Shown here piece after piece: positions 17,481 to 29,273 of a stretch of 31,463 bases of DNA. The first letter of the stretch is position 1. Each line of letters begins with the position of its first letter. A program made the translations under genes and the position numbers. Source of the DNA: Candidatus Micrarchaeota archaeon (GTDB lineage Archaea > Micrarchaeota > Micrarchaeia > Anstonellales > Bilamarchaeaceae); assembly GCA_037440825.1 (NCBI GenBank), contig JBBITJ010000002.1, positions 23,016 through 54,478 on the forward strand. The letters run 5' to 3'. The notes under the pieces were generated by a model. The model had not been told where the DNA came from, made no database searches, and saw nothing but the letters and a program-made list of their open reading frames with translations.

Positions 17481-17585
17481 TATATCTCCTCGCGGAATGG
17501 AGAATAGTTTTCTTGGAATCGAAGTTTATAATATTTATAGTTGGACTGGATGTGAAGCAATGCCGACAATCAAAAAATAGAATTG

Positions 17586-20270
17586 CTAGCGCCTTTCCCC
17601 GTATTCTCTAAGGAACTCTTCGTATTCCTCCAGCATGTCCTTGGTGATGGAGGGTCTGCGGCTGGAGATTATCTTGAGGAGCCCTTCAGTGGTGAGCTTC
17701 GGCGTGCCTCCTCTTATCTTCTGCCTAAGCGCGTCCATTTTCGCAGACTGGACTATTGAGGAAATGTCCGCTCCTGAGAAGCCCTCGCTGTCCTGCGCGA
17801 GCAGGTCCAAATCAATTCCTTTCGCGAAATCCCCGAGGTTTATCTGGAATATCTGCTTCCTTCCTTCTGCATCAGGAGGTGGGATGTAGAATATCTTGTC
17901 GAACCTTCCCGGACGGAGAATAGCTGGATCAAGCATGTCCGGCTTGTTCGTCGCGCCTATCACAACTACCCCCTTCAATTCCTTCATGCCGTCCATTTCC
18001 GTAAGCAATTGCCCTATTATGTCGCTGGACGCGAGCCTGCGCGAGGGTATCATGGATTCTATTTCATCTATGAAGAGGATTGCAGGCGTGTTCTCCTTCG
18101 CGCGGATGAACATCTCCTTCAGCACTGAAACCGCTTGCATTGGGCCTTTCTTCACCAAGTCAGCGCCGCTCAGGGTGATGAACGCTGCTTTCAATTCATT
18201 GGACGCGGCGCGCACAATAAGAGTTTTACCGCATCCTGGCGGGCCGAACAGCAGGATGCCCTTGCTGGGCTTGACCTTGTATTCCTTCATCAGGTCCTCG
18301 TGCAGGAGCGGAAGCTGTATGGTTTCCAGAAGTGCCTGGCGCACGTCTGCAAGCCCTGCGACGTCGTCCCATTTCACCTCGCTCTCCTTCTCCACCCCTG
18401 CCTTCTCGGGCTCTTTTCCGCCTAAGCGGCGCTGGAAGTCGAGCTTGAACTTTTCATAGTCTTCAAGGTGCGCCAGGCTCACCGAGGGCTTGGTTCTGGA
18501 GATTATAGCGAGGAGGTCTTCGGTGGTTATAGGAACCACGGTGTCGCTTTTCTGCGCCTTTTTCGCTACGGATTTGACCGCCTCGTCTATTACGTTCTTT
18601 ATGTCAGCGCCGGAGAAGCGGTCGGTCTTCTTAGCGAGTTTGTCGAAGTCTATTTCCCCTGCAGGGTATTTCTTTATGTGCACCCGGAAGATGGATTTCC
18701 TGCTGTTGTAGTCCGGAAGGGGTATGTAGATTATCTTGTCGAACCTTCCGGGCCGCAGGAGCGCTGGATCCAGCGCGTGCGGGATGTTCGTAGTTCCTAT
18801 TATCATGATGGGCTTCTTGCTGTTCGCAGCGCCGTCTATCTCTTGGAGGAGGACGCTGAGCACCCTTGGGGTAACGTCGTCGCTGCTCGAGGAGCGGGAT
18901 TTGCCTATGATGTCTATTTCGTCGAACATTATTATGCAGGGCGCGTTCTTGCGCGCGTCAGCGAACAATTCCGCGACGTTCTTCTCCGATTCGCCGTACC
19001 ACTTGCTCAGGAGCTCGGACGTGTTCACGTAGTAGAGGCGGTAGCTAATCTCGTTCGCGAGCGCGCGCACTATCATGGTTTTACCGGTACCGGGCGGGCC
19101 GAACAGGAGTATTCCTTTGGGTGGAACGAGGCCGTAGGCGTACGCTAGCTCCTTCTGCTCTATAGGCAGCATTACCGCGTCCTTTATCTCCTCCTTCACG
19201 TCTTCGTATCCGCCCACGTCCGCGAACTTCTCGCTCCCTTCCAGGCTTAGGTCGCGCACCCCGAACTTGCCGAAGGACTTGAGCCTCTCCTTCTTGAGTA
19301 TCGCGCTCTCCTGGCTGAAGTTTATCCCGTTCGCTTCCAGGAGGGCGATTACAGCTATCGAGGCCGCGGTGTAGAAGACGATTTCCTCCTTGAACGTGTA
19401 GCCGTAGACCTGCGAAAGGAAGTAATTGGTGATGGGGATGAGCACAAGGAAAAGGCTTGAATAGAGCTGGGTGTGCTTGCCTTTCTTCAGCCTTCCTGAG
19501 ACGAAGCTTATCATGAAAAGGACGAAGGACCATACGATGAGCTGCGCAACCCCACTGTCCGAGAAAATTATCGTTATGAGGTTCTGGCCGGTCTTCTCCA
19601 GCGCTACGCTGAACTCATTCGCCTTGGAGAAGTCGAACAGCGACTCGACAGCCTTCACGAATTCCACGGGCAGGGAAAGGAGCTGGACTTCGGGCTTGCC
19701 CTTTTGGAGGACCGGAGTAGGATCGTAGAGGCTGAGGTTGATTGGAAGGTAGGCGGAATTGTCCTGCATCCATATCGAAGAGAGGAAGAGGATTATGAGG
19801 ATGGACGGGACGGAGACCAACATGCTCTTGGAGGAGCCGAAATTCAACGCGCTCAGGGTCATGCCCAACATCACAAATCCTCCCAGCAAGGAGACCGGGA
19901 AAGGGGCAAAGGGAAGGAAAATGAGGACTTCCAGCGCGGAGATTATCGCCCAGTGCTCGAACGACTCGAAGAGCACTATCGCGACTATAAGGATGAAGAG
20001 GAAGCCAAGGGAATATGACTGGTATGCGAACGTGGGCAGGGCGAGCAGCACGCTCAGTATGGTGCCCATGGGCGCATACCGGTAGGCGATTCCGCCGCAG
20101 AGCAGCGCGAGAATCGGGACGATGTAAGAGGGATAGAATGGCATCGCGAAAAGGATGGAGAGCGAGCCTATGAAGACGAGAAGCGCGTGCCAGAAGTTCT
20201 CGTCGGCCTGCAATATCTTCGCGTAGGCCTGCACTTTCTGGGAGGAGATGGATTTTTGCTCGTATGGCAT
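17586..20270 (-). CDS. Polytopic membrane protein with two Cdc48/VAT-like AAA+ domains (894 aa)
   Basis: About 9-10 hydrophobic segments in the first ~315 aa. D1: GPPGTGKT / IIMFDEID / DPALLRPGRFD. D2: GPPGCGKT / LFIDEIE / DPAILRPGRFD. Confidence 0.92.
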   Translation of the reverse strand: MPYEQKSISSQKVQAYAKILQADENFWHALLVFIGSLSILFAMPFYPSYIVPILALLCGGIAYRYAPMGTILSVLLALPTFAYQSYSLGFLFILIVAIVLFESFEHWAIISALEVLIFLPFAPFPVSLLGGFVMLGMTLSALNFGSSKSMLVSVPSILIILFLSSIWMQDNSAYLPINLSLYDPTPVLQKGKPEVQLLSLPVEFVKAVESLFDFSKANEFSVALEKTGQNLITIIFSDSGVAQLIVWSFVLFMISFVSGRLKKGKHTQLYSSLFLVLIPITNYFLSQVYGYTFKEEIVFYTAASIAVIALLEANGINFSQESAILKKERLKSFGKFGVRDLSLEGSEKFADVGGYEDVKEEIKDAVMLPIEQKELAYAYGLVPPKGILLFGPPGTGKTMIVRALANEISYRLYYVNTSELLSKWYGESEKNVAELFADARKNAPCIIMFDEIDIIGKSRSSSSDDVTPRVLSVLLQEIDGAANSKKPIMIIGTTNIPHALDPALLRPGRFDKIIYIPLPDYNSRKSIFRVHIKKYPAGEIDFDKLAKKTDRFSGADIKNVIDEAVKSVAKKAQKSDTVVPITTEDLLAIISRTKPSVSLAHLEDYEKFKLDFQRRLGGKEPEKAGVEKESEVKWDDVAGLADVRQALLETIQLPLLHEDLMKEYKVKPSKGILLFGPPGCGKTLIVRAASNELKAAFITLSGADLVKKGPMQAVSVLKEMFIRAKENTPAILFIDEIESMIPSRRLASSDIIGQLLTEMDGMKELKGVVVIGATNKPDMLDPAILRPGRFDKIFYIPPPDAEGRKQIFQINLGDFAKGIDLDLLAQDSEGFSGADISSIVQSAKMDALRQKIRGGTPKLTTEGLLKIISSRRPSITKDMLEEYEEFLREYGERR

Positions 20271-20297: not shown

Positions 20298-20657
20298 TTA
20301 ATCGTTATCGCAGGGCCCGAAACGGAATTCATCCTGAACGAAGCCGGAGAGGTTGCCTTCCCTTATGCGCGGAACGCTCGCGCGCGAGGAGGATGCGGAA
20401 TCGGAAACGAGCTTGGATGTCAGGTCGGTCTGGCCCATTTCAATGCACATGCCGGTCTTTTCCAGGATTTCCATCGCGATTTCGTTCCCGATCGTGAGGT
20501 TCTCGAATCCCCCTTTCAGGTAAATTACATTTTTGGCGTCTCCCTGCAATTCGTATATGTATAATGAATTGTCTATCTGCGCATCAGCATGGATGGAAAG
20601 GAACATCGCGAGGGAGAGAAGCGCTGCGAAGGAAAGTAGGGATTCGAGCATTTGCAT
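20298..20657 (-). CDS. Small protein with N-terminal pilin-like hydrophobic helix (MQMLESLLSFAALL...)
   Basis: GGTGA RBS before ATG 20657, 1 nt after the upstream stop. Glu at position 5 followed by a hydrophobic helix. Confidence 0.7.
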   Translation of the reverse strand: MQMLESLLSFAALLSLAMFLSIHADAQIDNSLYIYELQGDAKNVIYLKGGFENLTIGNEIAMEILEKTGMCIEMGQTDLTSKLVSDSASSSRASVPRIREGNLSGFVQDEFRFGPCDND

Positions 20658-20658
20658 T

Positions 20659-21105
20659 TCATTCACCGCAGAAATAGAGCTTTCTTACTTCTCCAGTGGG
20701 TTCGTACACCACTAGGCGGTAGATGCACGTCCCTTCCCCCTCTTCGAAACTTATGGAAAATGATTTGAGGTTAAGGCGCTCGCGCAGGGATTTTTCCAAT
20801 TCGGGAAAGGAGGCTGCGGATACCAGGTTGGGATGGATAGCCTTTTCCGGGAAGCCGCTCCCCTCCGTTTGCGCGGCCCCTATTTTCACTGCGTAATTGC
20901 TCGCTGAAACCAGCTTGTCGAAAAGTATCTGGCGTTCCAAAAGGTCGGAGGTGCGATTTTCCAGCTGGGCGGAGAAAATGAGGGCATAGGAAACGATGAG
21001 GATGATGGGTATTACGGAGAAGAGGAAGTCCGGGGAGACGAAGCCGCGGCTCGCACGTGCGGAATTGGAGGCCGAAAACCTGGGACATTTATACCGGTTC
21101 GCCAT
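20659..21105 (-). CDS. Putative type IV pilin-like protein (class III signal peptide RG|FVSPDFLFSVIPIILIV)
   Basis: Basic leader, RG followed by F, acidic residue at +5 and a hydrophobic helix. GGGGGAG RBS. Overlaps the upstream gene by 17 nt. Confidence 0.7.
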   Translation of the reverse strand: MANRYKCPRFSASNSARASRGFVSPDFLFSVIPIILIVSYALIFSAQLENRTSDLLERQILFDKLVSASNYAVKIGAAQTEGSGFPEKAIHPNLVSAASFPELEKSLRERLNLKSFSISFEEGEGTCIYRLVVYEPTGEVRKLYFCGE

Positions 21106-21406
21106 AGTCTCCCCCTATTCCATATATCGTATAGCCACGGGCATCTGTTCCGGCTTCCTGCACGTACGAGCTTCCGGTCTCGGACTTGAGCGATGAATTC
21201 GTAGAGTAGACGAACCTTTCGTGCAGGATTGATTCCGCGGCGTCCAATGTGCGCGCGAATTGCTCGTTCTCCGCCTTTTCGGAAACCGCGGAGCTGAAGG
21301 ATTTTGACGCTGAAATGAGGGGCTGGAAGGAAGCGAGCAGGATGGAGATTAGCGAGAGCATGAGCAGGAAATTGAGCAGGAATTCAGAGGAAGCTTGGGC
21401 TTTCAT
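21089..21406 (-). CDS. Putative type IV pilin-like protein (class III signal peptide MKA|QASSEFLLNFLLML)
   Basis: Classic archaeal K-A|Q-x-S-x-E pattern followed by a hydrophobic helix. ATGA overlap with the upstream gene (true start 21406, not 21709). Confidence 0.8.
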   Translation of the reverse strand: MKAQASSEFLLNFLLMLSLISILLASFQPLISASKSFSSAVSEKAENEQFARTLDAAESILHERFVYSTNSSLKSETGSSYVQEAGTDARGYTIYGIGGDYGEPV

Positions 21407-22044
21407 TCTGCCGCGCCTGGCACCGTATAAGGCGCCTCGAATATCTTTTCGCTGGTGGGGATGTACGCGACCTTGGAGAGGTTGAATTTTTGCGAATAGA
21501 GCGTGATGCCGAAGATTCGCGGAGTGGAACCGAGGTTTGCCGAGCCCAGGGCGAGGTTCGCGAAGGAGGAATTGGAGAGGACATCCACTTCTATGAAATC
21601 CTTGCACAAGGGAAGGGGGCGGCAAGTCGGGCAGGAAAGGGGTTTCCCTTGCGCGAGGCTGGATTCCGCAATGCGGTTCAGTTCGCTGTTCCCGGATATT
21701 TCGCCGCACCAGAGCGATGCCTCGAAATCCATATCTCCGGCATGCACGAGCGAGAGTGAAGTGATGGCGCCGAGGCGGATGCGCTCCCTTGCTTCCTGCA
21801 TATCGAAGGCCATCGCTCCTCCTGAAGCCGCGATTTCGGCAAGGTATTCCAGGAAGCCTGCCGCTGCACCGTATTTTGCTGCGAGAAGCATACTGCGCTT
21901 CGCATCGAGCGAAAGCTGCTCCGCCCTTTCCAGGGCTATCGCCTTCTGGAAGTTGAGGGATTTGGATTCCCCGTATGCGCCGGCAAGCGCTGCGAGGGCT
22001 GCGAGTGCTGCAAGCACAAGCAGGAATGCGGCATATCCTTTCAT
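21403..22044 (-). CDS. Putative pilin-like or secreted protein (MKG|YAAFLLVLAAL), Cys-containing
   Basis: KG followed by a long hydrophobic helix; four Cys in the C-terminal half. TTTATAA box starts 29 nt upstream. Confidence 0.7.
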   Translation of the reverse strand: MKGYAAFLLVLAALAALAALAGAYGESKSLNFQKAIALERAEQLSLDAKRSMLLAAKYGAAAGFLEYLAEIAASGGAMAFDMQEARERIRLGAITSLSLVHAGDMDFEASLWCGEISGNSELNRIAESSLAQGKPLSCPTCRPLPLCKDFIEVDVLSNSSFANLALGSANLGSTPRIFGITLYSQKFNLSKVAYIPTSEKIFEAPYTVPGAAE

Positions 22045-22077
22045 AATGATGATACAGGAAAAGAAGTTATAAAGAGA

Positions 22078-22110
22078 TTAGAAAGGAAAAGGAAAATAAA
22101 GATGAAAATC
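22078..22110 (-). terminator. T-rich terminator after the VirB2-like pilin gene
   Basis: Minus strand ATTTTCATCTTTATTTTCCTTTTCCTTTC immediately after the stop. Confidence 0.55.
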
Positions 22111-22116
22111 CTGCGT

Positions 22117-22449
22117 TCAGCAGGAGAAACCGCCGCTCGGGTAAAGCGCTCCGAGGATGTTCGGGGTTATGACCACGATCAGGAGGCCGATTACGGCACC
22201 CACGAGCATCGCGGTTGCCCACACGGACGCCCTTGCCCTGGTCTCTGCACCGAGGAGCTGGCCTGCGGCGTAGATGACACCGGCGGAAACAATCATCAGG
22301 AACGAGACTATCGGGATGAGGCCTTTGATGTCGCTGCACAGGCTGGTAAGCGCATTGCTCAGTGCGCTCACGCCTCCCGTGGTCGCGGCTACGAGCGAGG
22401 TCGCGACTGCAAACATAAGGACTGCGTACATAATGGATTTCTTCCTCAT
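22117..22449 (-). CDS. VirB2/TrbC-like (conjugative-type) pilin, 110 aa
   Basis: Signal peptide, amphipathic helix, then two hydrophobic helices joined by a short basic loop (GQLLGAETRARASVW). GGTGA RBS and upstream TTTAAAAA box. Confidence 0.7.
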   Translation of the reverse strand: MRKKSIMYAVLMFAVATSLVAATTGGVSALSNALTSLCSDIKGLIPIVSFLMIVSAGVIYAAGQLLGAETRARASVWATAMLVGAVIGLLIVVITPNILGALYPSGGFSC

Positions 22450-22563: not shown

Positions 22564-24030
22564 ATGGACAAGAACGAGTTTGGGAAACTATCAATAATAG
22601 TGGCGTGCAGCTTCCTCCTCCACCTCGCGTTCATAACTTCGCACCCATTCTACCTGGACGAAGCGCTCTACGCGGAAATGATATGGGAGATGGAGGATCA
22701 TCCGACGCTTGTCCCGATGTTTTTCGGCTACGAGGCGGGGTGGAAGCCGCCCATGTTCTTCTGGACGTTCGCGGCAGCCACAGCGCTTACGCAGCAGATA
22801 TTCAGCAATCCTGAGTTCGCATACAGGCTTCCCAACGTGCTGTTCGCGATGGCGAACGTGGTGCTGTTCCACCTCCTCGCGAGGAAATGGCTCGGAAAGG
22901 AGACGGCGCCGTATGCAACAGCATTCTACGCGTTCTCCGCGCTTTTCCTGTACACGAACGAAAGGCTGCTCATAGACACGCTGGCAGTCACTTTCATACT
23001 TGGCTCGATATGCGCTTACGTCGAGTTGCGGGGCGCCCGCAGGTTCGCGCTGGGAGGCGCGCTCCTGTTCTTTGCCGTGCTCACCAAGTCAGTAGTGGGG
23101 TTCATCGTGCCCGCAGTGGCGGTGGCTTATTTCATCCAGCACGAACGCAGGGAGCTGCTCAATCCCGTGTTTATCCTTTCGCTAGCCGCGATACCGCTCG
23201 CGCTGGGGGTGCACTATTTCAGCCTAAGCCCTGAAGCGGCGCAGGGAATATTCTTCAGGGACATGGGAGGAAAAGTCGTAGGAGACGGCGCGGAGCTGGT
23301 GGAGAGGGTAGGCAGCTCGTTCATGAGCGGGCTCAGCTTCCTCAACGCGCTGCTCGTGCTTTCCGCAGCAGGGCTGCTGCTCAGGTGGAGGGAGAACTAC
23401 GCTATGGCGGCGTGGTACGCGCTCGCAGTCTTTCCTCTGCTGGGAGGCGCTTTCATGGCCTGGTATTTCTACGCGGTGCTTCCTCCGATGGCGTTCTTCG
23501 CCACGCTGCTGATGGCGCACGACCCGAAGACCGGAAAAACCAACATAGACGGATTCTTCAAGTTCGTGTTCGCGCTCGTGATAGGAATTAACATCCTAGT
23601 TTCGCTCCTCTGGTTCGAGCGGCTCATGGACATAGGCGAGCTGAAGATGGTAGGGGAATTCCTCGAAGGAAAAAAGAATGTCGCGTTCGTGGGCAGCTAC
23701 GGGGCGGCGGCGAGCGCAGTGGTTTACAAGGCGCTGGGCGAAAGAGCTGAAAACGGGAGCGCTGAGGACTTCGGGTGGGTGATTGTCCCGATGAACAGCA
23801 TAAACGACACCATGATAAGGGACTTCGCGCTGGACTACCGCACTTCGAAATACGAGGCGAACGAGGAGGATTTCGAGCGGCTGTTCTGGAGCGGCGAGAT
23901 ATTCAGGAAGAAAACCGGCGTGGAGAGGTTCGACTGGCTCGTGGTCAGCGGACCTTCGAAGCCGGAGATAAGCTGCTATTCCCAGGTGTTCATGGGAGAC
24001 GACCTGGCCATTTACCAGAGGGAATGCTAG
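22564..24030 (+). CDS. GT-C fold glycosyltransferase (ArnT/PMT-like)
   Basis: LDEALY acidic motif after TM1, KPPMFFW, RLP, D.L, LTK, many TM helices and a soluble C-terminal domain. Confidence 0.88.
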   Translation: MDKNEFGKLSIIVACSFLLHLAFITSHPFYLDEALYAEMIWEMEDHPTLVPMFFGYEAGWKPPMFFWTFAAATALTQQIFSNPEFAYRLPNVLFAMANVVLFHLLARKWLGKETAPYATAFYAFSALFLYTNERLLIDTLAVTFILGSICAYVELRGARRFALGGALLFFAVLTKSVVGFIVPAVAVAYFIQHERRELLNPVFILSLAAIPLALGVHYFSLSPEAAQGIFFRDMGGKVVGDGAELVERVGSSFMSGLSFLNALLVLSAAGLLLRWRENYAMAAWYALAVFPLLGGAFMAWYFYAVLPPMAFFATLLMAHDPKTGKTNIDGFFKFVFALVIGINILVSLLWFERLMDIGELKMVGEFLEGKKNVAFVGSYGAAASAVVYKALGERAENGSAEDFGWVIVPMNSINDTMIRDFALDYRTSKYEANEEDFERLFWSGEIFRKKTGVERFDWLVVSGPSKPEISCYSQVFMGDDLAIYQREC

Positions 24031-25529
24031 TGGACGAGAAGGCACTGCAACGGATCACGCTCGCGCTGCTCGCAGTGTCCATGGCAATAAACTTCTTCTA
24101 TTTCATCACCAACCCTGAGGCGAAGCTGAGCGGGGACCTGATAGAAACGACTGCTGCAATAAAGCAATTCAACGAATACGGATTCTTCGGATTGAATCCC
24201 ATGTTCGGGGAAAATGGGTACAGGCTTTTTGGGAACTATCCGCCGATTCCGCTGATAATCGGGGGGCTGTTCTCGCTCGTTTTCGATTACAATGTGGTGA
24301 CCGCTGCGATGAGCGTTGCGCTCCAGGCTGCGATATTCTATCTGCTCTATTACCGCGTGTTCAGCAAGGTGGACTTGGAATGGAGGCTGCTGCTATCCGT
24401 GTTCTTCCCGTTTGCGACAGTGTTCGGATTCCCCATGTTCTTCGCGTTCAGGCTGCGCTCGCTCATATCGCTCATATTCATCGTGCTGCTTTTCACGCTG
24501 GACAGGAAGGGAAGGAATTACGGTCCCATGGCGGCCGTGCTTTCCGCAGCTGCGTTCCTTTCCCAGCCGCTCATGGGCATGTTCACGTGGTTTTTCTACA
24601 CAGCCAGGGCAGCGGAGGAGAAAGACTGGAAGACTGCTGGATGGTTCGTTGCTGCACCCATATTCTCTTCGCTGTTCTATCTCGACCTTTTTGCCCAGGT
24701 TGGAGTGGAAAGCGAATTCCTGGGTTCGATCCTGTTCTCTGCTTCGCACACGCAGAACGCGTTCCTGGGACCGGTGTGCCTGATTGCAGTGCTGCTTGTC
24801 GCAGACCTTTCCAGGAATTCCGCGAAAGCTGCTGCGCTCGTGCTCGGCGCTCTTGCGATAATAACCACGAGCATTCTGTTCGGGGTGAATGAGATAGTGC
24901 TTGCTCTCGTACCGTTCAAGCAGGGTCTCGTCTATCCTGTGGCGCTGCTCCCCCTTTCCTTTATCCTCGTTGCGGAATCGGCGCGCGAGGGGAAGATGAA
25001 GAAGAATATGCTCGCCTTCTTCTGGATGGCGATAATCGTGTTTTCCGCAATGGATTTCGGGGCCAAGGCCGCTGCCGAGATGGACAGGTTTTCCGAAGCC
25101 AAGAACGCGGTGGATGCGATGGAGGACGCGGGCATCACGCATATGCTTGGGATAATAGCGCTCATGCATGGCGATGATGTATATTTCATCCATAGCGAAT
25201 ACACTGTTGGCTCTGCCGCGTACGTGATGGGCAAGAATTTCACCTTCATCAACAGGCCGCTCATGGGGCAGATGGACAGAGGAGGAATTTACGAGGAAGG
25301 GGCGCGGCTCATCAGGGACATAGCGGAAAGGGGCGGAGAATGCGAAGAGCTCGCACGGAACGTTTCCGCCAAGACGAGGTATTTGCTCCTGCAGATCGTG
25401 CAGGCGACAGGCGAAGAGGATCCGAAGGGCGTGCTTTTCGACGCATCGTATTTGGAGGGATGCGGGATAGCGGCTGTTGCGAGCAGCGGAACTTACGGAA
25501 TATACGACTTGAAGCCGGTGGCTGGATGA
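24024..25529 (+). CDS. Polytopic membrane protein, probable GT-C glycosyltransferase (paralog A)
   Basis: Acidic GDLIE after TM1, YGFFGLNP..G..GY.LFGNYPP loop, many TM helices. Start 24024 overlaps the upstream stop. Confidence 0.7.
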   Translation: MLVDEKALQRITLALLAVSMAINFFYFITNPEAKLSGDLIETTAAIKQFNEYGFFGLNPMFGENGYRLFGNYPPIPLIIGGLFSLVFDYNVVTAAMSVALQAAIFYLLYYRVFSKVDLEWRLLLSVFFPFATVFGFPMFFAFRLRSLISLIFIVLLFTLDRKGRNYGPMAAVLSAAAFLSQPLMGMFTWFFYTARAAEEKDWKTAGWFVAAPIFSSLFYLDLFAQVGVESEFLGSILFSASHTQNAFLGPVCLIAVLLVADLSRNSAKAAALVLGALAIITTSILFGVNEIVLALVPFKQGLVYPVALLPLSFILVAESAREGKMKKNMLAFFWMAIIVFSAMDFGAKAAAEMDRFSEAKNAVDAMEDAGITHMLGIIALMHGDDVYFIHSEYTVGSAAYVMGKNFTFINRPLMGQMDRGGIYEEGARLIRDIAERGGECEELARNVSAKTRYLLLQIVQATGEEDPKGVLFDASYLEGCGIAAVASSGTYGIYDLKPVAG

Positions 25530-27028
25530 AACGGGTTGCCGAAGCGATAAGGAACGGAGGGATTGCGCTCGCTTTATCCTCAGCCGCGCTCTATTTCGGG
25601 CTGCTCCTCTTCAGCGCCGCAGACATCATGGGCATATACATGTTCTTCCCGGACGTCGGGGAGACGGTTTCATCGGTAAGGATAGTGCACGATTACGGAT
25701 TCTTCGGCACGGTGCCTCAGCTCGGAAACGGCGGCTATTCGTTCTTCGGAAGCATGCCGCCGCTATTCCCTGCGATGGCGCAGGTTATTTACTCAGTTCT
25801 GGGCGACGCGGCGCTCAGCGCGTTCCTGCTGAACGCGATCGTGTCTGTTGCTGCTGCGGCGCTCATATTCCAGGTTGTTGACGGCGGGATGGAGATGAAG
25901 GCACTTGCTGTGCTGCTCCTGCTGGTGAACGTGTTCACAGGCGCGATGTTCCCGTTCGTGGTCAGGGCGAGGTCGCTGCTCGCAATGCTCTTCTTCCTGC
26001 TCGCAATCCACCTGGAGAAGAAGGGAACTGCCGGAAGAGGGGCGTATTTCCTGTGCTTCCTTGCGGCTTTCCTGAGCCAGCCGCTTGTGGCCGGGCTGGG
26101 CGCCGCGCTCCTTTCCTGGAGGATTTTCGCTAGAGGGGGCGACAGATGGAAGCTCGCTGCGATGGCGCTCGCGCTGGCTATTTCGATACCTTTCTATTAT
26201 AAGCTCATGGTGGGCGCAGGTGCTGAGCCGAGGAGTCTGGGCAGCTCGGCTTACGACGTGCGCAACGACACTCTCATCCCGGTGTATGGAACCGCGTTCC
26301 TCGCTTTCTCATCCGCCCTCCGAGGAAAAGAGAAGAATGAGGCGCTTCCTGCGCTCGCATTCCTGCTGCTGCCGCTCGCGAACACGGCAAGCTATATGAT
26401 TACCGGAAGGCTGGACCAGACGTTGTTTGCGAACGTGCTGTTCGGCTCGGACCTCGTATATGCGGCGTTCTTCGCGCCGTCCGCGGCGTTCCTGCTCTCT
26501 TTTTACGGCTCGAGGCTGAGCAGAAGCAAGATTGCAGCAGGGCTGCTTTTCGCCATCGCTGGAATAGGCGTGGCAGGGACCTACGGATACGTGCTTCACG
26601 GCGCGGCGGACTTCCAAGACAAGATGCAGCTCATCGAAGGAATAGACGAGGCGGCTTCTAAACTGCTCGTCGTGCCGGCGGTTGAAAGCGGCGGGAAAGT
26701 TTGGATGATACACGGGGACTTCATGATAAGCGGGCTCGCCGTCGCTACAGGCAGGAACATCTCCTTCGTGGGCAATTTGATTCCGCCACAGCTGGACAAG
26801 GGTCCGGAATTCAGCGCGGCGATGGAGCTTGCGAACGGGAATGTTTCCGATTGCGATGGGCTGGTCGCGGGCATGGGTGATGCGGACATGCTCATATACA
26901 TCACGAACAGCCCTAAACTGAACTGGAAGCTGGATGGCTGGGCGAAGGAGTGCGGGTTGGTGAAAAAGGAGTTCGGAACTTCTTACGGCGGAGCCATCGC
27001 TGCGTATTCCATACCTAAGGACGGCTAG
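25526..27028 (+). CDS. Polytopic membrane protein, probable GT-C glycosyltransferase (paralog B)
   Basis: PDVGE, YGFFGTVP..G.GGYSFFGSMPP, R.RSL and AAFLSQPL shared with the preceding gene. ATGA overlap. Confidence 0.7.
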   Translation: MKRVAEAIRNGGIALALSSAALYFGLLLFSAADIMGIYMFFPDVGETVSSVRIVHDYGFFGTVPQLGNGGYSFFGSMPPLFPAMAQVIYSVLGDAALSAFLLNAIVSVAAAALIFQVVDGGMEMKALAVLLLLVNVFTGAMFPFVVRARSLLAMLFFLLAIHLEKKGTAGRGAYFLCFLAAFLSQPLVAGLGAALLSWRIFARGGDRWKLAAMALALAISIPFYYKLMVGAGAEPRSLGSSAYDVRNDTLIPVYGTAFLAFSSALRGKEKNEALPALAFLLLPLANTASYMITGRLDQTLFANVLFGSDLVYAAFFAPSAAFLLSFYGSRLSRSKIAAGLLFAIAGIGVAGTYGYVLHGAADFQDKMQLIEGIDEAASKLLVVPAVESGGKVWMIHGDFMISGLAVATGRNISFVGNLIPPQLDKGPEFSAAMELANGNVSDCDGLVAGMGDADMLIYITNSPKLNWKLDGWAKECGLVKKEFGTSYGGAIAAYSIPKDG

Positions 27029-28548
27029 CCCCTGCTGTAGTAGACGACCGTGGAATTGCTCACGTTGAAATAAACCGGCGAGTAGTTCGAATCCAGGAAC
27101 GACTTGAACTCCGAGAGGCTGGCGGGGGAAAAGGAGGAGAGGTCGAAATCTGACTGGAAGAAAAGGACGTGGTCCGGCATGCCATCTTCAACCGGCCGCA
27201 TCACTTTCTCTTCGAACCATTCCCGGCTCTTCGGGAATCCGGAATCGGAATGCTGGAATATCAGGGGCATGAACGGCTCTTTGCCTAATATTGTGTAGTA
27301 TGCTCCGCGGCTGGGGAAGACGAAAAATGAGCCTTCGGAATGTTCCTTAAGGTATTGGATCATTTCGCCGTTGCTGCCGCAGAACGAGACATGGTTGTTC
27401 GTGGAGAAGTGGGATGCGGCAAAGGAGGGAAGCAGCAGCATCATTGCCAGGAGAGGGAAAAAGATCGCTGACGCGGGCAGCGCCACAGAGCCTAGGAGCT
27501 CGCGGATTCCGGCCTTCTGGGAGCATTTGCGCGCCGCAGGCGCGAGCTCGGAAATTGAAAGTGTCCATGCGAAAGATGCTGGAAGCAGGTAATAGGAGAG
27601 CACGAGCACGTAGAAATGGAAGGAGAATGCCCTTGACAGGAAGAGGACTATGGTGCTGAGGAAAAGCAGCAGCACTGCGCCTTCGAAATGCCCCTTTTCC
27701 TTTTTCATCATGAAAGGAAGGGCTGGCGCGAGGAAGAGGAATGACAGAACCCCATAAATCGGGGCGGAGAGCATCCACGAGAAGGAGCTGAAATACTCGA
27801 TGAATTCCGCAACGCTCCAGCCGTTCGCCTGCGCCGGGAACCCGGAGAGGTTCAGGAACAGGAAGGAGATTGCGAGGAGGGGAATGGCTGCCGAGAGGAA
27901 GCCTGCTGACGCCCAGAGCGCGGATTCGCGCGGGTTTCCGGATTTCGCGATCGCGTAAAGAATAGGCAGGGCGAGGGCCGCTGCGGAGAGCGGCTTTATG
28001 AAAAGGGGGAGCGCAGCGAAGAAGCAGGCGAGGAATATTGGGCGCGGCCTCCTTTCGTCCATGGATGATATAAGGAAATGGAATGATGCTGCCCAGAAGA
28101 GAATTGTGAAGAGCTCGGCGCGCAGGAACGCGTTGAGCCCGAGGAATAATGCGAAGAATATGTAAATCAGCGGAGGCAGATACTTGTAAATGCCGCCCAT
28201 TCTCTGTGCGGAAGTGGCGAATATTATAGCGGCGATTAGGAAATTCAACGCGAGCGAGATGCCCCTTATGCAGCCCATGGACGTGCCGCATGCGCCTACG
28301 ACCAGATAATCAAGAGCGTGGAGAAGGGGAAGCTTGTTGTCGTAAACGTCCCTGTACAGGACTCCGCCCTGATGCATGATTTCAGCCACGAGGACGTACA
28401 TGCCCTCATCATGCTCTATGAGCCCGCAGGAGAACATCGGGAAAGAGAGCGGAAGGAACGACAGGGCTGCGAGGATTGCGAGGAACGACCAATGCTGCCG
28501 CACGAATTGCGCAACGCCGCTTGATTCGGGCTTTATGGGTGGACGCAT
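27025..28548 (-). CDS. GT-C fold glycosyltransferase (ArnT-like)
   Basis: EHDEGMY, LYRDVYDNKLPL, AELF, FIKP motifs, many TM helices, extracellular C-terminal domain. Confidence 0.85.
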   Translation of the reverse strand: MRPPIKPESSGVAQFVRQHWSFLAILAALSFLPLSFPMFSCGLIEHDEGMYVLVAEIMHQGGVLYRDVYDNKLPLLHALDYLVVGACGTSMGCIRGISLALNFLIAAIIFATSAQRMGGIYKYLPPLIYIFFALFLGLNAFLRAELFTILFWAASFHFLISSMDERRPRPIFLACFFAALPLFIKPLSAAALALPILYAIAKSGNPRESALWASAGFLSAAIPLLAISFLFLNLSGFPAQANGWSVAEFIEYFSSFSWMLSAPIYGVLSFLFLAPALPFMMKKEKGHFEGAVLLLFLSTIVLFLSRAFSFHFYVLVLSYYLLPASFAWTLSISELAPAARKCSQKAGIRELLGSVALPASAIFFPLLAMMLLLPSFAASHFSTNNHVSFCGSNGEMIQYLKEHSEGSFFVFPSRGAYYTILGKEPFMPLIFQHSDSGFPKSREWFEEKVMRPVEDGMPDHVLFFQSDFDLSSFSPASLSEFKSFLDSNYSPVYFNVSNSTVVYYSRG

Positions 28549-28556
28549 TTGGACGC

Positions 28557-29273
28557 CTAGGTGAGCAGGGATCTGCAGTATGAAAGCACGTGGAAGGCGC
28601 TTATCTTGGACGAGCCGGATTTCCTCAGGCCGAAATCGTATCTTATTTCAGAAATCTTGGTGCCTGCCGGCAGCTGCTTGAGCACGTCGAAAAGGAGCTT
28701 GTAGCCCCTCATGTTTATGCGGCTCTTGTCCACTTTGGAGAACAGGGTTTTTTTCATCCCGAAGAAGCCGGACATTATATCGTACCTCCAAGGCTTGCCT
28801 CTGATGGCGAGGGAAATTGAGCCAAGAGCGTTGGCGCCTGCGCTTATGAGCCAACGAATAGCTGACCAGTCCTTCGTAGATGCGCGCGAAGCGATCACTA
28901 TGTCGGCAGCCGAACGGTCGAACTCGCGGATAATCTCCCCTACTTTCGCAGGAGGGTGCTGGAAATCGCCGTCCATAACTATGAAGCGGGCGGTTTTGCA
29001 TTCCTCTATCGCGTGGACCACGCTTGCGACGTTCCCCTTCACTTTTTCCCCGCTTCTGTCCAAGAGGGAGATGCGGCCGGAGGCGGATTTTTCCAGCCCA
29101 CGCACGAGCTCGCGCGTGCCGTCCGTGGAGCCGTCGTCGGAAAATATTATGCTTATGCCGGGGTAGAGGGACTGGAGCTCCTTTGCCAAGGGAACCGCAT
29201 TGCCGGATTCGTTGAGCACCGGGATTATTATCGTGTAGCCTTCGAAGCTGCTGCCTGTTTCTGGTTCTGGCAT
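28557..29273 (-). CDS. Polyprenol/dolichol-phosphate sugar synthase (DPM1-like GT2)
   Basis: IIIPVLNE, DDGSTDGT, VMDGDFQHPP, VIASR, DIMSGFF, GYKLL, R..GSSK. Confidence 0.9.
   Translation of the reverse strand: MPEPETGSSFEGYTIIIPVLNESGNAVPLAKELQSLYPGISIIFSDDGSTDGTRELVRGLEKSASGRISLLDRSGEKVKGNVASVVHAIEECKTARFIVMDGDFQHPPAKVGEIIREFDRSAADIVIASRASTKDWSAIRWLISAGANALGSISLAIRGKPWRYDIMSGFFGMKKTLFSKVDKSRINMRGYKLLFDVLKQLPAGTKISEIRYDFGLRKSGSSKISAFHVLSYCRSLLT

Follow-up and report, generated by a model that had tools for sequence, protein, structure and literature searches.

A membrane-bound double AAA protein in a Micrarchaeota genome

The window analysed here is the whole stretch of 31,463 nucleotides (nt) from a Candidatus Micrarchaeota archaeon (GenBank assembly GCA_037440825.1, contig JBBITJ010000002.1, positions 23,016 to 54,478 of the forward strand). 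The gene in question is an open reading frame (ORF) on its minus strand, at 17586..20270, which according to the ORF list and its translation encodes a protein of 894 amino acids (aa). The protein carries a ten-helix membrane domain followed by two AAA ATPase modules, D1 and D2 (Table 1), and it is the product of a real, conserved gene of the Micrarchaeota, which are symbiotic archaea of very small size. The source genome is assembled in 45 contigs (875 kb, 95.6% complete) and the window is ordinary chromosomal DNA, with genes for TFB, ABCE1, eIF2-gamma, ribosomal protein S6e, a topoisomerase and several glycosyltransferases, and with tRNA-modification genes.

Table 1. Features of the ATPase gene, of its surroundings in the window and of related loci elsewhere in the genome
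Feature	Position	Strand	Basis
Entire gene, membrane domain and two AAA modules, 894 aa	17586..20270	-	ORF list; homologues matching in length and architecture
Residues 1-23, Lys-rich cytoplasmic N-terminal tail (predicted), helix 8-22	20202..20270	-	AlphaFold2 secondary structure; family mean of 5.3 Lys+Arg
Residues 24-313, ten-helix membrane domain	19332..20201	-	hydropathy; AlphaFold2 pLDDT 95.2; alignments
Residues 168-239, long extracytoplasmic loop (predicted), helices 197-210 and 214-237, net acidic	19554..19769	-	AlphaFold2; family 3.9 Lys+Arg vs 6.8 Asp+Glu
Residues 314-345, short cytoplasmic linker (predicted), helix 321-334, FGKFG 333-337 nearly invariant	19236..19331	-	alignment, AlphaFold2, motif position
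Residues 346-615, AAA module D1	18426..19235	-	Pfam; best PDB stretch p97 D2 476-704; motifs
D1 landmarks: Walker A 391-398, SKWYGESE 422-429, Walker B to E451, N495, R506/R509, C-terminal helix PSVS..YEKF from 595			
D1 pore loop 1, residues 422-429, canonical aromatic-x-Gly (W424-Y425-G426)	18984..19007	-	motif position; family count
Residues 616-630, flexible charged D1-D2 linker	18381..18425	-	pLDDT <50 at 617-629
Residues 631-894, AAA module D2	17589..18380	-	Pfam; best PDB stretch VAT D2 458-716; motifs
D2 landmarks: Walker A 676-683, KKGPMQAV 707-714, Walker B to E736, N775, R786/R789, C-terminal helix and tail ..EYGERR			
D2 pore-loop site, residues 707-714, without aromatic-x-Gly, Gly-Pro here	18129..18152	-	motif position; family count
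Six-T run, 9 nt past the stop codon, archaeal terminator-like	17572..17577	-	read from the sequence
Five tightly packed small genes, pilin-like or membrane proteins	20298..22449	-	ORFs; no Pfam family; 27-nt spacer before the ATPase start
S-layer gene of the same genome	C1:30187-33054	-	
Pair of genes for proteins of about 700 and about 155 aa, same genome	C19:9272-11987	-	

Membrane domain

An earlier note on this DNA, made from the sequence alone, had proposed that about ten membrane helices replace the N-domain of Cdc48, with one long loop of about 65 aa. Ten helices are indeed obtained from Kyte-Doolittle windows and from two AlphaFold2 models (24-42, 51-64, 66-84, 86-103, 107-121, 126-144, 146-167, 240-260, 267-289 and 296-313). 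The model of the whole protein has a predicted local distance difference test score (pLDDT) of 81.1, with 84-93 across residues 20-320, and the model of the N-domain only, built on 39 aligned sequences, reaches a pLDDT of 95.2 and a predicted template modelling score of 0.91. The single long loop was also rightly noticed, but in the models it spans 72 aa (residues 168-239) and holds two short helices. In 25 family members, lysines plus arginines number 0.68-2.84 per loop in the short loops assigned to the cytoplasm and 0-0.40 in those assigned to the outside. This bias supports an N-in/C-in topology, in which the ATPase would be cytoplasmic and the long acidic loop would lie outside. Hydropathy, modelling and loop charges thus agree on a polytopic N-terminus, a point on which the earlier note had made its reading depend. 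As helix 10 and D1 are spaced by only about 30 residues, D1 is predicted to lie beside the membrane.

The alignments show several conserved positions in the membrane domain: PFYP 45-48, AYQS 82-85 with an invariant Q84, W107, PF 120-121, GSK 145-147 and D238-S239. The best conserved of these (PFYP, AYQS, PF and D238-S239) are placed at the outer ends of the helices.

Residues 1-330 gave no match in Pfam or NCBIfam, hence no Cdc48 N-domain (double-psi barrel plus beta-clam). When 25 N-domains of the family were compared with Pfam at E-values up to 10, no family was matched by more than one member, and none of the 25 matched an S-component family. A Foldseek search of the membrane domain against the PDB returned nothing at E <=0.001 (best E 1.1), and the best score in the ESM Atlas, 0.88, came from bacterial clusters and is under the trusted level. 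By structural superposition, 13 of the 14 top matches of the membrane domain are S-components of ECF transporters or their solitary relatives. The best of them, 4hzu_S, aligns 146 of 164 residues with the last six helices (model residues 101-324) at Z 9.5 and a root-mean-square deviation of 3.6 A; Z ranges from 9.5 to 6.8 for the S-components, and is 6.2 for MreD and 6.7 for the membrane part of Lnt. With this search tool, Z values below about 13 are common among unrelated helical bundles, so we take the likeness to S-components as a lead and not as membership. In Pfam and by Foldseek, the membrane domain thus finds no match to a described family.

ATPase modules and pore loops

In the protein, Pfam recognises AAA (E 1.5e-82) and AAA_lid_3 twice each, along with two C-terminal helices that resemble Vps4_C. 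The earlier note had reported Walker motifs and arginine fingers in both rings, and they are all in place: Walker A at 391 and 676, Walker B at D450-E451 and D735-E736, sensor-1 at N495 and N775, and RPGRFD arginine fingers at 506 and 786. An alignment of 17 relatives shows no variation in either Walker motif, the sensor-1 asparagine or the two arginine fingers. In a larger set of 54 family sequences (20 from the loci and 34 stored proteins, with duplicates kept), the Walker B DE and the RxGR motif are found in 52/54 for each ring. The similar C-terminal helix that the note had seen on both modules has the motifs PSVSLAHLEDYEKF at 595 (D1) and PSITKDMLEEYEEF at 873 (D2). In agreement with the note, which had described the protein as lacking a protease domain, none was found by Pfam, and PF01434 in particular is absent.

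The two rings differ in pore loop 1. In D1, the ring proximal to the membrane, the loop singled out by the note, SKWYGESE, belongs to an aromatic-x-Gly type kept in 47/54 family sequences. The loss of this motif from D2, also proposed by the note, proved to be right in part. The D2 loop is non-canonical throughout the family, with aromatic-x-Gly in only 5/54, but the aromatic residue itself is wholly gone in few members: 34/54 keep a glycine followed by tyrosine or phenylalanine (K-x-G-Y/F), and Gly-Pro is present in 4/54, this protein among them. Judged from these sequences, the asymmetry of the pore loops is family-wide, and only a few members have fully lost the aromatic residue in D2. The C-terminus reads EYGERR; a YGER[RK] tail is found in 41/54 sequences and an HbYX (hydrophobic-Tyr-X) tail in 1/54.

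Some relatives depart from this plan. The distant family member P0046 (822 aa) has one AAA match instead of two, and in P0055 (926 aa) the AAA match scores 131 bits; full-length relatives, P0041 and P0053 for instance, reach 244-259. The decayed second module in these two proteins suggests that D2 may be dispensable for catalysis in some lineages. In many relatives, D1 is interrupted between Walker A and Walker B by inteins (Intein_splicing, LAGLIDADG_3). Inteins favour conserved, important genes. Intein-bearing relatives include P0010, P0020, P0021, P0026 and P0061, and frames of 1350-1958 aa are found in at least 16 genomes; one relative of 1912 aa has two inteins and the copy in the window has none.

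Distribution

A search with the N-domain among 1.84 billion cluster representatives returned 40 clusters only, mostly of proteins of 890-930 aa, the remainder being short fragments or longer forms with inteins in D1. Ten of the 40 clusters were looked up by name, and all ten are Micrarchaeota, including one from the ARM-1 genome record. An N-domain profile run among longer proteins found the same Micrarchaeota family and no other. Within the phylum, the membrane domain was detected in 310 of 401 genomes with a single sequence as query and in 331 of 401 with a profile of 25 sequences, or 163 of the 188 genomes of high quality. These phylum tallies count two unpublished genomes, G028 and G197, among the 401; nothing else in this work rests on them. 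Where it is found, the gene is nearly always present in a single copy, in a frame of about 900 aa, in genomes of about 0.5-1.8 Mb.

The note had raised an assembly chimera as one danger for its reading. A fusion kept across the phylum, with identical architecture in hundreds of genomes, rules this out. Stand-alone or single-ring forms were also sought, and discarded: matches of 645-652 aa look like fragments, and one of them shares a 90% cluster with a 927-aa protein.

Nine families of the phylum have no detectable copy (0/7 genomes in f15, 0/21 in f16, 0/8 in f19, 0/4 in f21, 0/4 in f22 and 0/1 in each of four more). In three genomes of those families, 92-97% complete, the CDC48 profile finds only ordinary Cdc48.

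Origin of the two modules

When D1 and D2 were searched separately, the best stretch was the D2 of p97 or VAT in 60/60 of the matches listed, and on the CDC48 profile both modules fall at about 445-731 in 15 genomes of the class. A maximum-likelihood tree was built from 50 modules of 14 Cdc48 proteins, 10 membrane AAA proteins and two TPR-AAA proteins as outgroup. It holds Micrarchaeota sequences and this outgroup only, and excludes a Cdc48 that probably carries an insert. Each kind of module forms its own clade, with supports of 100 (Cdc48 D1), 98 (Cdc48 D2), 96 (membrane D1) and 98 (membrane D2). The two Cdc48 modules are sisters (93 in the Shimodaira-Hasegawa-like approximate likelihood ratio test) and the modules of the membrane AAA proteins fall outside that clade.

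The earlier note had suggested that the protein arose by tandem duplication of one module. A tree constrained to join both membrane-AAA modules was 0.84 log-likelihood units above the free search, with a p of 0.528 in the approximately unbiased (AU) test. Joining membrane D1 with Cdc48 D1 made the tree 10.6 units worse (p-AU 0.239). Within this genome, identity is 40% between D1 and D2, 43% between D1 and Cdc48 D2, and 34% between D1 and Cdc48 D1. These values are compatible with a tandem duplication of a D2-like module and slightly favour it; it is not established, and the alternative in which membrane D1 would be orthologous to Cdc48 D1 is not rejected by the test.

Comparison with known AAA proteins

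The closest solved relatives of the protein are p97, Cdc48 and VAT (p97 sequence match E 5.2e-156; Foldseek E 2.1e-38), with which it shares tandem classical AAA modules, all catalytic motifs and an aromatic pore loop of the unfoldase type. It differs from Cdc48 in that the ten-helix membrane domain takes the place of the N-domain, the canonical pore loop is in D1 and not in D2, and its modules form their own clades. It scores 483.9 bits with TIGR01243 (CDC48), below the cut-off of 802.65, and both modules align only to the D2 half of that profile. It also lacks the C-terminal HbYX motif of proteasome-activating AAA proteins such as PAN and HbYX-bearing Cdc48, in contrast to the Cdc48 of the same genome, which ends in MYR.

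FtsH forms a membrane-anchored classical AAA ring, with its pore entry towards the membrane, and extracts membrane proteins; it combines a single AAA ring with two membrane helices and an M41 zinc protease domain. The 894-aa protein has instead ten helices, two rings and no protease, and scores 397.1 bits with TIGR01241 against a cut-off of 600. Vps4 and CdvC, of the meiotic clade, have an N-terminal MIT domain, one AAA module and a Vps4_C helix, and with them only the C-terminal helix matches (PF09336, 40.3 bits); the CdvC model gives 364.7 bits against a cut-off of 650, and no MIT domain was found. Archaeal LonB is a membrane-anchored AAA+ protein for membrane-protein quality control, with one AAA+ module, inserted membrane helices and a Lon protease domain; a separate LonB candidate coexists with the 894-aa protein in this genome. 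Msp1/ATAD1 and Bcs1 are membrane-tethered AAA rings, of which Msp1 extracts and Bcs1 translocates proteins, according to the available parts of PMC7018516 and PMC10567702. They differ from the 894-aa protein by a single N-terminal helix per subunit, a single ring and a eukaryotic organellar location. The MBA proteins of Sulfolobus, for which Serek-Heuberger and colleagues are said to have described in 2009 an outer domain between two membrane helices, with one AAA module only, are set apart by that description, and no Sulfolobus protein is among the ten N-domain matches (of 40) that were named. MBA are archaeal AAA proteins bound to the membrane, and they were the only archaeal group called membrane-bound AAA that we found in the literature (PMC3493965, in its available part). 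The six-helix bundle of ECF S-components (RibU, ThiT, BioY, FolT, PanT, CbiM, BtuM) resembles residues 101-324, approximately. The membrane domain differs from them by four additional helices and the 72-aa insert, and it is fused to AAA modules and not partnered with EcfT and EcfA.

Our literature search found no description of a double-ring AAA protein with a polytopic membrane domain, so the characterised family against which the earlier note had warned did not turn up. By its domain composition, the protein would be a membrane-tethered AAA unfoldase in which both the membrane domain and the number of rings are unprecedented.

Other proteostasis genes of the genome

The genome also encodes the alpha and beta subunits of the 20S proteasome, a LonB candidate (672-aa frame, contig C3), one canonical Cdc48 (C26:5325-7433, plus strand) and one TPR-AAA protein. 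Neither a PAN-like module nor an FtsH protease domain (PF01434) was found in it. Since the one canonical Cdc48 carries an HbYX-like tail (MYR) and no PAN-like gene was found, it is probably the proteasome ATPase in this genome. Such a role has been proposed for Cdc48 in archaea without PAN (PMC3493965, available part). The TPR-AAA protein, encoded at locus L080 (C13:16463-17311, minus strand; 573-aa frame), consists of N-terminal TPR repeats and a single classical AAA module, and similar frames of 487-590 aa are found in six more genomes of the class. The LonB, Cdc48 and 20S genes, together with the conserved outer-face residues and the S-layer gene link in other families, are points beyond those of the earlier note.

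Gene neighbourhood and link with S-layer genes

Upstream of the ATPase gene lie five small genes whose products have pilin-like starts, with a hydrophobic N-terminus of the archaeal type (e.g. MKAQASSEF..). One of them, a 110-aa protein, gave a weak match to VirB2/TrwL pilins (E 0.0022, far under the cut-off). Pilin-like homologues stand upstream of the ATPase in 3 of 4 loci of the same genus and beside it in none of 20 loci from other genera, one of which has a homologue 4 kb downstream. Conserved synteny with the neighbours seen in the window (TFB, ABCE1 and the pilin-like genes) was considered and discarded, as it is not kept in those 20 loci.

In 7 of the same 20 loci, a surface-layer (S-layer) gene (PF05124, E 1.3e-14) lies directly downstream of the ATPase on the same strand. 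The gene that comes next encodes, in 6 of the 20, a membrane protein of about 700 aa, and five of these six loci also have a gene for its paralogue of about 155 aa. The S-layer profile matches in 341/401 genomes of the phylum. We intersected the listed coordinates of the S-layer and ATPase matches in the 116 genomes listed in both searches: the S-layer gene is downstream on the same strand, at 2.3-7.8 kb start to start, in 42 genomes from 14 families. In the rest, it is nearby in another arrangement in one, far away on the same contig in 6 and on a different contig in 67, 47 of them in f1. In the genome studied here these genes are spread over three contigs: the S-layer gene is on C1, the 700/155 pair is on C19, and C2 carries the ATPase.

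In the protein of about 700 aa, a signal peptide and two membrane helices accompany a large outer domain; the one of about 155 aa is a membrane-anchored paralogue of the C-terminal domain of the larger protein. The two genes remain linked even where the S-layer gene has moved away, and from its features the larger protein could be a candidate S-layer stalk or anchor. The conserved envelope cluster of S-layer, 700-aa and 155-aa genes is observed at loci L038, L039, L040, L046, L047, L049 and L052. As stated in the available parts of bioRxiv 10.1101/2021.04.28.441871 and PMC8975820, the anchoring of the Micrarchaeota S-layer to the membrane is unknown, and the lattice is probably hexagonal with a spacing of about 16 nm. 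The available text of both sources makes no mention of this ATPase, and the supplements of PMC8975820 contain nothing relevant in the parts available. A conserved cytoplasmic tag by which surface proteins could be gripped was also looked for and given up: the S-layer proteins have no C-terminal membrane helix, and the motif MKGxNxKK, conserved at their N-termini, is present once in this genome.

Discussion

We propose that the 894-aa protein may act as a hexameric type-II classical AAA dislocase or unfoldase on membrane or envelope proteins, a reading to which we give about even chances. What the data show is the protein's architecture and topology, its conserved motifs, its spread among genomes and its gene context; an unfolding or translocating activity is inferred from the architecture, and the hexamer, the direction of threading and the clients are inferred as well. 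Four features point to this reading: the gripping ring is turned towards the membrane, both rings look active, protease and docking motifs are missing, and envelope genes are neighbours in several lineages. Arginine fingers act in trans in classical AAA proteins and imply a ring oligomer, so the intact fingers of both modules argue for such a ring. Type-II AAA translocases studied to date thread their substrates from the D1 face to the D2 face, which fits extraction from the membrane and not export.

In this mechanism, six protomers would assemble via their two ATPase rings. The ten-helix bundle of each protomer would hold the D1 ring on the cytoplasmic side, at about 30 residues from the membrane and with its entry turned to the bilayer, where the Trp-Tyr pore loops of D1 could grip the tails or loops that membrane-anchored clients expose to the cytoplasm. 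ATP hydrolysis in both rings would then thread the client from D1 to D2 into the cytoplasm, and the contribution of D2, whose loop is non-canonical, would be power and stability but not grip. As the protein has neither a protease domain nor a proteasome-docking tail, the extracted chain would be handed on to Cdc48-20S or LonB, or would reassemble. Cell-surface proteins are the likely clients, and the conserved residues of the outer face may serve to recognise either a lipid-linked ligand or the portion of a client that lies outside the membrane.

Several observations weigh against an extraction motor of this kind. LonB, a Cdc48 with an HbYX-like tail and the 20S proteasome are already present in the genome, so that an extra quality-control motor is not obviously needed. 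The conservation peak lies on the outer face of the membrane domain, an observation left unexplained by extraction alone. The S-layer protein, which bears a signal peptide, offers no cytoplasmic tail for gripping. S-layer adjacency is absent from the family of this genome, f1 (0/50), from f6 (0/7) and f17 (0/5), and it is also missing in one f12 and one f13 genome examined. Four measured gaps between the ATPase and S-layer genes, of 218-288 bp, leave space for a separate promoter. Moreover, the nine families without the ATPase (48 genomes searched) still keep the S-layer gene.

The outer-face conservation and the neighbouring genes could instead speak for a machine for envelope assembly or anchoring, a rather unlikely alternative in our view. 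A hexameric membrane base would organise, anchor or remodel the S-layer lattice or pilin-like structures; the outer loop and outer-face residues would contact surface structures, whose assembly or turnover would be powered by the ATPase rings. The S-layer gene immediately downstream in 42/116 genomes from 14 families, the 700/155 genes that follow in some loci and the pilin-like genes directly upstream within the genus are in line with it, as is the statement that the anchoring of this probably hexagonal lattice is unknown (bioRxiv 10.1101/2021.04.28.441871; PMC8975820; available parts). The broken pairing in f1, f6, f17 and in one f12 and one f13 genome, and the nine families that have the S-layer gene without the ATPase, count against such a machine just as they do against extraction. 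In addition, the outer loop is only about 72 aa long, and an anchor could do without a gripping pore loop and a pair of active ATPase rings.

The likeness of the last six helices to S-components has led us to consider an AAA-energised system for uptake or sensing, which we regard as quite improbable. The six helices would bind a small molecule or lipid outside, for instance one derived from the host, as an ECF S-component does, and the AAA rings would replace ABC ATPases as energy source or regulator. Micrarchaeota rely on hosts for many metabolites, and this dependence would agree with such a role, as would the 13 S-component-type matches among the best 14 (best Z 9.5) and the polar residues conserved at outer helix ends (Q84, D238, S239, Q243). 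However, Z values of this size, below about 13, are common for unrelated helical bundles, the best Foldseek E is 1.1 and no S-component family of Pfam is reached at E up to 10. We also know of no AAA-driven small-molecule transporter, and the pore loop of D1, made to grip polypeptides, would be left without a role. A further reading, though very improbable, is a motor working outwards, which would push proteins across or into the membrane or remodel the membrane at the contact with the host. Bcs1, an AAA protein moving cargo across a membrane, provides a precedent, and the envelope-gene neighbours would suit such a motor. Yet with the gripping ring facing the membrane, export would require threading from D2 to D1, for which we know of no case among type-II AAA proteins; besides, the neighbouring surface proteins bear ordinary signal peptides. 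The restriction of the family to a phylum described as dependent on host interaction (PMC8975820, available part) would favour export as well, but no other secretion components are conserved nearby in the loci examined.

In a broader and unlikely picture, the protein would be the ATP-driven base of an undescribed Micrarchaeota cell-envelope machine. A membrane ring of sixty helices would, with its outer face, dock S-layer or stalk proteins, or bind a host-derived lipid or glycan in an S-component-like pocket. Where the cell meets its host, surface proteins would be inserted, anchored, remodelled or recycled by the double AAA ring. If true, this would address how the S-layer of Micrarchaeota is anchored and would provide the first type-II AAA machine with a polytopic membrane domain. 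To our knowledge, membrane-tethered AAA motors (FtsH, Msp1, Bcs1, LonB) form a single ring, and each of their subunits has one or two membrane helices. Returning to the putative dislocase, the retention of a double ring fused to a ten-helix domain by most of a phylum of small genomes suggests an important, unstudied function. Such a protein would also offer a new architecture for structural work on AAA motors that engage membrane-embedded clients. The recurring adjacency to S-layer genes gives a testable clue to how DPANN archaea make or turn over their envelope, and biochemical tests seem feasible, as cultivated Micrarchaeota carry relatives of the gene (e.g. the ARM-1 genome record).

Further features of the window

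Oligo-T functions as a terminator in archaea, and the T run after the stop codon suggests that the ATPase gene is probably the last in its transcript. Among the sequencing runs listed as holding the sequence there is one DNA run, from a subsurface metagenome, and no RNA run. Within the group of small genes upstream, the ORF at 21089-21709 overlaps that at 21403-22044 in another frame, and its true start is probably an internal Met near 21400. Beside the pilin-like genes, at 22564-25529 (plus strand) and 27025-29273 (minus strand) of the window, we observed a neighbourhood that resembles a surface-glycosylation locus, with a PMT_2-type (dolichyl-phosphate-mannose) glycosyltransferase, a GT2 enzyme and two polytopic membrane proteins of 584 and 507 aa that have no Pfam family.

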